A stretch of 64,000 nucleotides of DNA from Escherichia phage vB_EQ1. Below, one piece after another: positions 45,228 to 46,624 of this stretch. How positions within the stretch are numbered: position 1 is the first letter of the stretch; each line of letters starts with the position of its first letter. The notes under the pieces are model-generated. The model did no database searches, was not told where the DNA came from, and saw only the letters and a list, made by a program, of their open reading frames with translations. The stretch lies in the sequence record PQ516281; one strand, 5' to 3'. The translations under genes were made by a program, and so were the position numbers.

Positions 45228-45467
45228 TTATTTGAATTTCTTGGCAATGTTGATATAACGTAAAGCTTCAGAATCTATACTTCCAAGAACACTATGAAGG
45301 AATGCATCAGTGTAGTATTCCAATTGAACAGGTTCTTTAATCACTTTAGCCGCTTTGGTTTCAAACAGGCCCATAAGGGCCTTTTTAAGAATTTGTTCGT
45401 TAGTGTTCAGTTTAATAGTCAAAATCTCTTCGTTAAGATTATAATTAAAAGTTTTTCTAGAAATCAT
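45228..45467 (-). CDS. Hypothetical protein (79 aa)
   Basis: ORF, ATGA overlap with upstream gene. Confidence 0.5.
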   Translation of the reverse strand: MISRKTFNYNLNEEILTIKLNTNEQILKKALMGLFETKAAKVIKEPVQLEYYTDAFLHSVLGSIDSEALRYINIAKKFK

Positions 45468-46624
45468 TCCGGGTACCTCAAAGCGTCATCAGAGTTAGTT
45501 ATATCAATAATAGATATAGAGTTTTCTGCTAACCCGTTTTTAGATAACTGACGTTTATAATATCTTTCACAATATGTACACGTCGTCCCGCAGATTTCAT
45601 TAGCACAATCGAAATCTGGATGTCTGAACCACCTTTTTTCTAAAAAGCCATCTAACAAAGAGGTTTCAATATTTACCGTATGTGAAAACTCGGTCTCATT
45701 TTCAAGAGTGAAAATGGTCTCTAAAGGCTTCCACAATTCTAACAAATTACCTTCAAACTTTTCAGAAGCGTATGCTTCAAGAACTTTCAAAATGTAGTCT
45801 GTGCTACCTGTACGTCCCGAAACTTTAAATTGAGTGATACCAATATCATTATAAAGTTTCAAATCTTGTGGACGAACAAAACGAGTTCTCAACCAGTTAA
45901 ATGGGTCTGTATCACGAGCTTTAATACAGTGCTGCATAGGATATCCATTTAAGGATTTAGCATCATCAGCTGTAACATCAGTACTATGGAAAATATAGCA
46001 AGAGTCACGATAGCTACAATGTGTTGTATACCCTTTACCAGCATTAGAACAGAACTCATTTACAAGAACTTCAAATATTATATTGTTCTTATTGCAAAAC
46101 TCTGCTGCACGCTTCAGGAAAGAAACTGAACGGTTCTTATGAATTCCACAGCAGACCTTTTTGATATTATACTGGTCATGCAAGTATTTGATTTGAGTTA
46201 CAGCATCGACATGTAGAATTGTTGAAACTTCAATCTCAATGTCTTTATTGACTTCACGAACAATTTCCATAACAACAGGGTTAGCGATAGTAATACGCCA
46301 TACGCCTATTGACCAAAGATACTGAACATAGTCCTGAATAGCTTTCTTCTTCCACTCAACTAGTTCTCTTTTTGAACCCGGATTTATCGTGTTGAGTGTA
46401 TAGTTAAAGCAAATACCTAATTCGTTACAACGTTTAACGTAATCTTCTAACATCTTTTTGTCAACGTCAGGAAGCCTAAAATCAGGTCTGGCTGCTACAA
46501 AAGCCATTTCTCTTGTAGAGCCGTATACTTCGTTTATCAAGCTATTAGGATAAGTTTTATTGAGCTCTACGATTTTATCAAGAAGAGCTAAATCAAAATT
46601 CGTTCCGATTTTAAAAGTATTCAT
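45464..46624 (-). CDS. Hypothetical Cys-rich protein (386 aa), possible metal/Fe-S enzyme
   Basis: Cys cluster CANEICGTTCTYCERYY near C-terminus and EVLVNEFCSNAGKGYTTHCSYRDSC mid-protein; faint resemblance to peptidase-U32-type E-x-F-V-H-G-x-C motif; weak. Confidence 0.5.
   Translation of the reverse strand: MNTFKIGTNFDLALLDKIVELNKTYPNSLINEVYGSTREMAFVAARPDFRLPDVDKKMLEDYVKRCNELGICFNYTLNTINPGSKRELVEWKKKAIQDYVQYLWSIGVWRITIANPVVMEIVREVNKDIEIEVSTILHVDAVTQIKYLHDQYNIKKVCCGIHKNRSVSFLKRAAEFCNKNNIIFEVLVNEFCSNAGKGYTTHCSYRDSCYIFHSTDVTADDAKSLNGYPMQHCIKARDTDPFNWLRTRFVRPQDLKLYNDIGITQFKVSGRTGSTDYILKVLEAYASEKFEGNLLELWKPLETIFTLENETEFSHTVNIETSLLDGFLEKRWFRHPDFDCANEICGTTCTYCERYYKRQLSKNGLAENSISIIDITNSDDALRYPE

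Follow-up and report, generated by a model that had tools for sequence, protein, structure and literature searches.

A U32-family protein in the DNA-modification cassette of RB69-like phages as a candidate oxygen-independent pyrimidine hydroxylase

Phage DNA that carries arabinosyl-5-hydroxycytosine is protected from restriction, and other defence systems in turn sense the modification. The sole demonstrated route to the modified base needs O2, though the gut bacteria that serve as hosts often grow without O2. How might the modification be made when oxygen is lacking? The question is raised by the gene p050 of Escherichia phage vB_EQ1 (sequence record PQ516281), a T4-like phage of the RB69 group, of which a stretch of 64,000 nucleotides (the window) was analysed. 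The gene, orthologous to RB69p050, encodes a U32-family protein at 45464..46624 on the minus strand, as an open reading frame (ORF) of 386 amino acids (aa) with an ATG start and its stop codon within the end coordinate. By analogy with RlhA, TrhP and UbiU/UbiV of Escherichia coli, p050 is proposed to be a prephenate-dependent, O2-independent hydroxylase of pyrimidine C5, probably acting on deoxycytidine monophosphate (dCMP), a reading to which a probability of about 60% is given. There is perhaps an even chance that it is the first U32 member to act on a DNA precursor, converting dCMP to 5-hydroxy-dCMP with prephenate as donor and without O2.

The sole Pfam domain of p050 is PF01136 (Peptidase_U32), which covers residues 94-286 at 42.2 bits against a gathering score of 22.4, and phrog_5757, labelled 'peptidase', spans its full length. 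An AlphaFold2 model built with 26 sequences (predicted local distance difference test score, pLDDT, 90; predicted template modelling score, pTM, 0.89) has alternating strands and helices, and its closest fold in the Protein Data Bank (PDB) is the U32 protein 5d88. This entry surfaced by fold comparison only: a PDB sequence search with p050 or with its family profile gave no meaningful match. On this model, the fold is a U32-type (beta/alpha)8 barrel. The database names 'peptidase' and 'collagenase-like protease' are inherited from PrtC-type reports, and would make p050 a genuine peptidase, collagenase-like as in GenBank; that it is one, or a non-enzymatic structural protein, is scarcely credible. 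The U32 family has no known protease catalytic machinery, its characterised members are tied to hydroxylation, and the gene is found consistently in nucleotide and DNA-modification modules and encodes nine invariant cysteines.

The 13 Cys residues of p050 (3.4%) give it the highest fraction among the 72 ORF-called genes of the window, for which the pooled value is 0.98% (binomial P = 1.5e-4). Among 5.8 billion clustered proteins searched, 268 relatives were found, with a closer tier at 76-87% identity from T4-like phages of Enterobacterales and Shewanella, and a large second tier at 48-58% identity that is metagenomic. In an alignment of 121 of these relatives, reaching down to ∼48% identity, C158, C192, C203, C209, C233, C340, C345, C349 and C352 are invariant in all 121, and C177 is retained in 118. 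When p050 is aligned with the four E. coli U32 proteins, its FKVSGRT falls on the U32 motif FKIEGR, and C203/C209 fall on C169/C176 of UbiU, C169/C176 of RlhA and C170/C177 of TrhP. The two UbiU residues are demonstrated [4Fe-4S] ligands (PMC6747719). Measured against the family motif CX6CX15CX3/4C, C203-x5-C209 takes the place of C169-x6-C176, while C233 and, probably, C192 stand in for the third and fourth positions; UbiU and UbiV deviate from the motif too. The modified motif region (codons 190-233, 45926..46057, minus strand), in which E190, C192, C203, R206, C209, Y210, H213 and C233 are invariant, is the predicted [4Fe-4S] site of the family type. The C-terminal cluster (codons 340-352, 45569..45607, minus strand), C-x4-C-x3-C-x2-C with all four cysteines invariant, is a predicted second metal or Fe-S (iron-sulphur) site. 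From the sequence, two Fe-S or metal sites are predicted for p050, the first on C203, C209, C233 and probably C192, the second in the C-terminal tail, and we infer that it binds Fe-S clusters.

Part of this had been foreshadowed. The original prediction for the locus, made from the letters alone, had delimited exactly this Cys-rich ORF of 386 aa, and the mid-protein segment to which it drew attention is present at residues 190-209 (EFCSNAGKGYTTHCSYRDSC). The C-terminal cluster that it described is likewise there, at residues 340-352 (CANEICGTTCTYC), but the spacing is C340-x4-C345-x3-C349-x2-C352 and not C-x3-C-x3-C-x2-C. A U32-type TIM barrel, raised as a weak possibility, proves to be correct, given the PF01136 match and the likeness of the model to 5d88. 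The suggested metal or Fe-S centre is plausible, as C203/C209 align with proven UbiU ligands and the clustered cysteines never vary; a lack of conservation in homologues, named as the finding that would speak against such a centre, is not what the 121 sequences display.

Within the U32 family, p050 stands apart. Profile comparison by hhalign gives 83% probability with RlhA, in the U32 core only, which is the best value among the E. coli paralogues, then 6% with TrhP (YegQ) and 4.8% and 0.5% with UbiU and UbiV. The hidden Markov model (HMM) of the p050 family scores TrhP at 15 bits, in fragments, and RlhA at 9.2 bits, with all four paralogues at or below 15 bits. The NCBIfam model quinone_UbiU scores p050 at 18.5 bits against a cutoff of 440, the NCBIfam TrhP model does not match it, and no DUF3656 was found by Pfam at E <= 0.1. 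The protein is not an orthologue of any E. coli paralogue, and for its assignment to one of their subfamilies the two methods disagree, hhalign favouring RlhA and the family HMM scoring TrhP slightly higher, all weakly. On these sequence comparisons, p050 is treated as a separate U32 subfamily.

The characterised members of the family share a chemistry. RlhA (YdcP) of E. coli is required for 5-hydroxycytidine at C2501 of 23S rRNA, and depends on Fe-S biogenesis and on prephenate; its activity needs the C-terminal cysteines C580 and C611 as well as those of the U32 motif (PMC5727448). UbiU and UbiV each hold one [4Fe-4S] cluster on four cysteines and replace flavin monooxygenases in anaerobic ubiquinone synthesis (PMC6747719), and 18O labelling identified prephenate as their oxygen donor. 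TrhP provides a prephenate-dependent route to 5-hydroxyuridine at tRNA position 34 (ho5U34) that is redundant with the O2-dependent TrhO. Obligate anaerobes have no TrhO, and the authors of the TrhP/TrhO work argue that organisms living in both regimes gain from having both routes. Hydroxylation that depends on prephenate and dispenses with O2, a chemistry that the original prediction had missed, gives p050 a specific predicted role.

Prephenate is the product of chorismate mutase, and a chorismate mutase gene accompanies the U32 gene in many phages. A tblastn search with p050 gave 221 matches among 50,697 phage records. In Enterobacter phage Entb_45, the ORF that follows the U32 gene with a 4-nucleotide (nt) overlap (L005:6158-6397; L numbers designate the loci collected for this study) is an AroQ chorismate mutase, with a Pfam CM_2 score of 40.9 bits (gathering score 27) and matches to many NCBIfam chorismate mutase models as well. 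This enzyme is found in 51 phage records, and lies within ∼350 nt of the U32 gene in all 15 of those for which both sets of coordinates are at hand. It is 75-79 aa long, directly follows the U32 gene, and is annotated as hypothetical in most records; the hosts include Klebsiella, Serratia, Yersinia, Enterobacter, Edwardsiella, Erwinia, Proteus and Shewanella, among others. Thirteen of the 15 U32-positive Straboviridae contigs in IMG/VR have it, the only ones without being the Mosigvirus and Marfavirus contigs. The linkage extends to unrelated phage or anaerobe contigs, in which genes of the 3-deoxy-D-arabino-heptulosonate 7-phosphate (DAHP) synthase or chorismate mutase type occur within ∼3 kb of U32: DAHP synthase directly follows it in L011 (NCBIfam DAHPS 237 bits versus KDO8PS 63) and in L029, and fusions of DAHP synthase with CM_2 or stand-alone chorismate mutases lie beside or near it in L041, L043/L044, L045, L063 and L066. 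A phage has little other obvious use for a chorismate mutase; the gene looks like an auxiliary metabolic gene that supplies prephenate, and the linkage as a whole points to prephenate.

No chorismate mutase was found in the window itself (best tblastn E 0.29), so that in this Mosigvirus prephenate would come from the host. The slot that chorismate mutase fills in most related phages is occupied here by p049 (45228..45467, minus strand), a 79-aa ORF with no assigned function whose start overlaps the U32 stop (ATGA). It belongs to phrog_8601 and has no Pfam or NCBIfam match. The idea that p049 is a diverged chorismate mutase was rejected: there is no CM_2 match at E <= 10, BLASTP against the Entb_45 enzyme gives E = 7, and both genes are present in Yersinia phage TG1, in Pectobacterium phage PM2 and in L030, the p049 homologue lying between U32 and chorismate mutase in the Yersinia and Pectobacterium phages. 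Its family profile matches none of the neighbour families of more distant U32 loci by hhalign. It evolves much faster than its neighbours (synonymous divergence, pS, 0.22 and ratio of non-synonymous to synonymous divergence, pN/pS, 0.23 relative to RB69), and some Mosigviruses (AV118, JS09, TU01 and PNJ-6) have a split or truncated copy.

The surroundings of p050 place it in the cassette that makes the modified DNA of RB69. That DNA was originally reported to contain arabinosyl-hydroxymethylcytosine (PMC6024577); according to a 2026 study, deoxycytidine is fully replaced by mono- and di-arabinosyl-5-hydroxydeoxycytidine (PMC13326640). The same study demonstrates experimentally that RB69 gp48 is a 5-hydroxy-dCMP synthase, which binds flavin mononucleotide (FMN) and takes its oxygen from 18O2, and that gp48 with a deoxynucleoside monophosphate kinase suffices for 5-hydroxydeoxycytidine (5hodC), gp48 being active in E. 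coli without p050 (PMC13326640). UDP-arabinofuranose (uridine diphosphate-arabinofuranose) is made by a SIS isomerase, a kinase/pyrophosphorylase and a HAD phosphatase, with gp46:47 and gp3 as the transferases; the nucleosides of RB69 are 5hodC plus one or two unmodified 132-Da pentoses, with no other modified base (PMC13326640).

The genes of this pathway are laid out around p050 in the window, all on the minus strand. The ThyA homologue at 44470..45186 is identical to the flavin- and O2-dependent RB69 gp48 at 238 of 238 residues, and hence the neighbour that the original prediction took for a hydroxymethylase is a demonstrated 5-hydroxy-dCMP synthase (PMC13326640). Beyond it lie the glycosyltransferase (43571..44470; RB69 gp46:47, 'arabinosyltransferase 1', assigned by structure comparison in PMC13326640), a single ORF of 299 aa, and a thymidylate-kinase-like nucleotide kinase (RB69p045, 43021..43569). 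On the other side are an AfhF-like HAD-type phosphatase (RB69p051, 46682..47083), assigned in PMC13326640 to the step from arabinofuranose-1,5-bisphosphate to arabinofuranose-1-phosphate, an AfhE-like bifunctional sugar kinase/nucleoside diphosphate-sugar pyrophosphorylase (RB69 gp52:53, 47068..48753; Pfam NTP_transferase with weak kinase-family matches), and a SIS-domain arabinose-5-phosphate isomerase (RB69p055, 48935..49570; Pfam SIS). The glycosyltransferase and the 561-aa kinase/pyrophosphorylase are split in the RB69 reference as ORF046/047 and ORF052/053; these splits have been published as sequencing errors, with which the single ORFs of the window agree.

The p050 gene itself has been catalogued before. 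In PMC13326640 it bears the Table 1 label 'sugar or heterocycle reductase', with a match to 5d88, and is absent from the discussion; the authors cite the RlhA and tRNA ho5U studies as pyrimidine hydroxylations outside the 5hodCMP-synthase family, with no connection to p050. Earlier papers either give it 'homologs among peptidases' or leave it unmentioned, and the Thanatos phage paper models the orthologue TH1_065 but assigns no function. In the literature covered, which is incomplete, nothing was found that links U32 or chorismate mutase to phage 5-hydroxycytosine; the proposed role may nevertheless not be new.

The tentative label in PMC13326640 corresponds to a different role, in which p050 would belong to the sugar branch as a tailoring or redox enzyme, or would reduce a sugar or a heterocycle; it would act on arabinose or a sugar nucleotide or else support gp48, for example by redox cycling. 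Its position between base-modifying and sugar-activating genes fits this, as does the company of SIS, AfhE-like and glycosyltransferase genes kept by U32 in distant phages. It is distinctly unlikely all the same, as the path from ribulose 5-phosphate to UDP-arabinofuranose and the transfer steps are explained without p050, and phages DLP3 and VR5, which have no U32, arabinosylate their DNA or possess the cassette. The pentoses of RB69 DNA are unmodified, gp48 functions in E. coli when p050 is absent, 32 contigs have U32 but no gp48, and linkage to chorismate mutase and DAHP synthase has no rationale in sugar chemistry. The original prediction had offered oxidation, epimerisation or a second transfer step as possible roles in modifying the base or the sugar; oxidation of the base is now favoured, and the other two lack support, the arabinose pathway and its transferases being complete without p050 in DLP3 and VR5.

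The gene is nonetheless held tightly. The protein is identical to RB69p050 at 384 of 386 residues, the gene differs from that of RB69 by 17 synonymous and two non-synonymous changes (pN/pS 0.03), and it is conserved at 99% or above in 152 phage records; it is under strong purifying selection, with a constraint equal to that on neighbouring proven enzyme genes. Over the 6.6 kb from uvsX to the DNA polymerase gene, the window shares 100% identity with Escherichia phage MRostami-2023e and 98% with RB69. A poly-A tract (46625..46640, minus strand) immediately 5' of the U32 start, separating it from an upstream ATG, varies in length, with A6 in RB69, A7 in phiE142 and A8 in the window. In the window this puts the N-terminal 'MQK' of the RB69 annotation out of frame, and the start of p050 is the ATG at 46624. 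A TTTAAA-16-TATAAT site is present just upstream of this start; a promoter and terminator scan of the cassette found 26 sites where 25 were expected by chance, that is, no enrichment.

If p050 is a hydroxylase of this kind, C5 of a deoxycytidine nucleotide, most likely dCMP, would be hydroxylated without O2, the hydroxyl coming from prephenate. Following the published proposal for UbiU/UbiV, the pyrimidine ring would undergo a two-electron oxidation with the Fe-S clusters relaying electrons, and hydroxide would be delivered via the decarboxylative aromatisation of prephenate to phenylpyruvate. The 5-hydroxy-dCMP would then pass through nucleotide kinases and DNA polymerase into DNA, to be arabinosylated with UDP-arabinofuranose from the adjacent enzymes. 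In this scheme, where we infer the substrate of p050, its use of prephenate and its independence of O2, p050 would be the anaerobic twin of gp48 two genes downstream, redundant in air and needed without oxygen, and the modification would be kept up through p050 in the anoxic gut. Such a division of roles fits three observations: in air, gp48 and a kinase are enough, no additional chemistry is seen in RB69 DNA, and p050 is still nearly invariant.

In some cassettes U32 seems to displace the ThyA-type synthase. ORFs were called in 47 IMG/VR loci and searched with the cassette proteins of the window; the counts given here are for the 31 distant viral loci with an intact U32 ORF (40-55% identity). 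An AfhE-like kinase/pyrophosphorylase lies within 4 kb of U32 in 16 of the 31. A homologue of the gp46:47 glycosyltransferase adjoins U32 in 13 (often directly upstream of it), a SIS isomerase homologue is present in nine, and a Tmk-like kinase of families F4 and F9 (hhalign 97-98%) lies beside U32 in 12. A gp48-type gene within 10 kb of U32 was found in none of them, and the single ThyA among these loci is canonical (L143, D169, N177). Across IMG/VR contigs, a separate scan with sensitivity limited to roughly 45% identity or more detected the gp48 type in 35, including all 15 U32-positive Straboviridae and none of the 32 distant contigs, so that 20 contigs have gp48 only, 15 have both and 32 have U32 only. 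The converse arrangement, cassette and gp48 without U32, is seen in Acinetobacter phage DLP3 and Escherichia phage VR5. Taken together, these patterns indicate that the glycosylation cassette is accompanied by U32, by a ThyA-type hydroxylase or by the two together.

The distant loci also bear on the substrate. Contigs of the 40-58% tier encode DNA polymerase III alpha, uracil-DNA glycosylase (UDG), dCMP deaminase, Tmk, deoxyuridine triphosphatase (dUTPase), NT5C and deoxynucleoside kinase (dNK), that is, modules of replication and nucleotide metabolism. A possible alternative has p050 perform the same chemistry on cytosine or uracil within a polymer, either replicated phage DNA or the tRNA or rRNA of phage or host, and not on a free nucleotide; in its favour, the known pyrimidine-hydroxylating U32 proteins act on RNA polymers only. 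It is considered unlikely, since p050 has no extra Pfam domain such as the DUF3656 of RlhA, the neighbours of U32 in many phages work at the nucleotide level (Tmk-like kinases, dCMP deaminase, dUTPase, NT5C, dNK), and complete replacement of deoxycytidine, as in RB69, occurs at the precursor level in T-even-type phages. An RNA target would, moreover, leave the linkage to glycosyltransferase and sugar-nucleotide genes unexplained.

A further alternative turns on the C-terminal cysteines, and would make p050 a nucleotide-modifying Fe-S enzyme that does not hydroxylate, working for instance by a radical-type mechanism, with a product formed only anoxically and so unseen. The string C345-x3-C349-x2-C352, whose last Cys is preceded by an aromatic residue, resembles the radical-SAM cluster motif CX3CX2C, which is usually located where the barrel begins. 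In L002 and L003, family members have radical SAM/SPASM genes in their vicinity, and the p050 subfamily is distant from all characterised U32 proteins. The string sits in the C-terminal tail (residues 345-352) and not at the usual barrel position, however, and p050 has no Radical_SAM Pfam match; the chorismate mutase and DAHP synthase linkage points to prephenate, and the cassettes need a hydroxyl acceptor for their glycosyltransferase, for which U32 is the sole candidate within them. This alternative is accordingly rated very unlikely.

Several other features of the distant loci are recorded here. A cluster of ∼160-220-aa proteins with no Pfam match (F3) lies between the kinase/pyrophosphorylase and U32 in 14 distant viral loci (L038, L044, L048, L054 and others) and also in three loci from metagenome-assembled genomes (MAGs) of anaerobes (L065, L066 and L068); it may be an analogue of the phosphatase that is otherwise missing, or may work together with U32. 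dCMP deaminase lies directly upstream of U32 in L002, L012/L013 and L056, distant phages with DNA polymerase III alpha, and it is a possibility that some phages with this linkage make 5-hydroxy-dUMP (5-hydroxydeoxyuridine monophosphate) instead of, or besides, 5-hydroxy-dCMP. The Bacillota contigs L003/L004 and L064 encode two paralogues of the p050 subfamily (365 and 377 aa, the second scoring 116 bits with the family HMM) together with a radical SAM/SPASM protein, NT5C, a PnuC-type transporter, a deoxynucleoside kinase and a nucleoside 2-deoxyribosyltransferase-like gene, and may represent a cellular or prophage module for deoxynucleoside modification or salvage.

Does the distribution of the two hydroxylases follow oxygen? 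Homologues of gp48 (identity of at least 38%) are present in 345 phage records, 57 of them from Acinetobacter, which is a strict aerobe. The ten host genera listed for the 221 U32 matches are all Enterobacterales, with phages of Shewanella, Pectobacterium, Erwinia and Morganella also occurring; as Acinetobacter is absent from the ten, a few of its phage records at most could carry U32, and DLP3, which was checked directly, does not. The hosts of the U32-positive isolates, Enterobacterales and others, are facultative anaerobes. This suggests that Acinetobacter phages have gp48 only and that most Enterobacterales phages have both genes. In cellular genomes (one genome per species, 185,579 species) only eight U32 loci were found, in Erysipelotrichales, Oscillospiraceae, Gastranaerophilaceae, Romboutsia (two), Phocaeicola, Clostridium and a Bacillota MAG, several with the same cassette; all are taxa that we take to be gut or sediment anaerobes. 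O2-independent nucleotide enzymes are already part of the phage repertoire, as RB69 encodes the anaerobic ribonucleotide reductase NrdD/NrdG (nrdG and nrdD at 44977..47261 in RB69, just beyond the end of the window). The distribution of NrdD is at most suggestive as an oxygen marker, with Acinetobacter outside its top ten host genera. A weak glutaredoxin-like (NrdH-type) ORF lies at 63007..63459 on the minus strand, at the end of the window.

Against an anaerobic hydroxylase stand a number of points. The correlation with host oxygen is not strict, as about 40 Escherichia phage records (for example that of Dhakavirus VR5) and a few from Enterobacter and Serratia have gp48 without U32, and the viral contigs come without habitat assignment. 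The absence of gp48-type genes from U32-only phages holds for +/-10 kb around U32 and for the pattern-limited contig scan only. The window, all Mosigviruses and Marfavirus have no chorismate mutase, and the strongest linkage is therefore that seen in relatives. The Cys spacing of p050 departs from CX6CX15CX3/4C, and with HMM scores of 15 bits or less on all four E. coli paralogues, a separate subfamily could have a different chemistry. The level at which p050 would act (dCMP, another nucleotide or DNA) is read from neighbouring kinase and deaminase genes only. In vitro reconstitution of the hydroxylase has not been achieved even for RlhA, TrhP or UbiU/UbiV, and no biochemical or genetic test of p050 was found in the literature covered.

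If the proposal is right, glycosylated 5-hydroxycytosine DNA has a second, anaerobic route, which would explain how the modification can be made in anoxic niches. U32 would be the only route in many gut phages of obligate anaerobes, a backup in Enterobacterales phages, and absent where the host is a strict aerobe. The near-invariant 'peptidase' gene of more than 150 Mosigvirus genomes and the chorismate mutase of T4-like phages would both be explained, the phage chorismate mutase and DAHP synthase being auxiliary metabolic genes that feed the U32 hydroxylase. A large and unstudied group of anaerobe phages should then carry glycosylated 5-hydroxypyrimidine DNA. A U32 protein that is soluble, has a single subunit and acts on a small nucleotide, as p050 would, could be a tractable model for prephenate-dependent hydroxylation. 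For phage therapy, DNA-modification status, and hence sensitivity to defence systems, may depend on oxygen.

Comparison with known systems shows where the analogy is close and where it loosens. RlhA shares with p050 the U32 domain, a product base, 5-hydroxycytosine, that is the one proposed for p050, and groups of cysteines at the U32 motif and towards the C terminus. Unlike p050, it is 653 aa long and includes DUF3656; its substrate is a ribosome precursor and its Cys spacing the canonical CX6CX15CX3C, whereas the 386-aa p050 has no DUF3656, a C-x10-C-x5-C-x23-C spacing and the compact tail C-x4-C-x3-C-x2-C. The pairing of TrhP with TrhO follows the logic proposed for p050 and gp48, in which a U32 prephenate route and an unrelated O2 route lead to one 5-hydroxypyrimidine, and the distribution across phages and hosts mirrors theirs; the substrate there is tRNA, however, the O2 partner is a rhodanese and not a ThyA homologue, and TrhP, at 453 aa, has a longer C terminus. 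UbiU-UbiV resembles the proposed p050 in being the anaerobic U32 counterpart of a flavin-dependent enzyme, here gp48, but is a heterodimer that acts on a prenylated phenol with the lipid carrier UbiT, while the phage has just one U32 protein, in which roughly double the number of cysteines is conserved. Mk0906 of Methanopyrus kandleri (PDB 5d88), an entry with no stated function, is 14% identical to p050 over 247 residues and has no C-terminal Cys tail. The ThyA-family synthases RB69 gp48, DLP3 gp80 and that of HY126 would have the same product as p050 and belong to the same cassette, gp48 lying two genes away; they differ in having a thymidylate synthase fold, a flavin cofactor, oxygen taken from O2 and a function that is demonstrated, where that of p050 is proposed.

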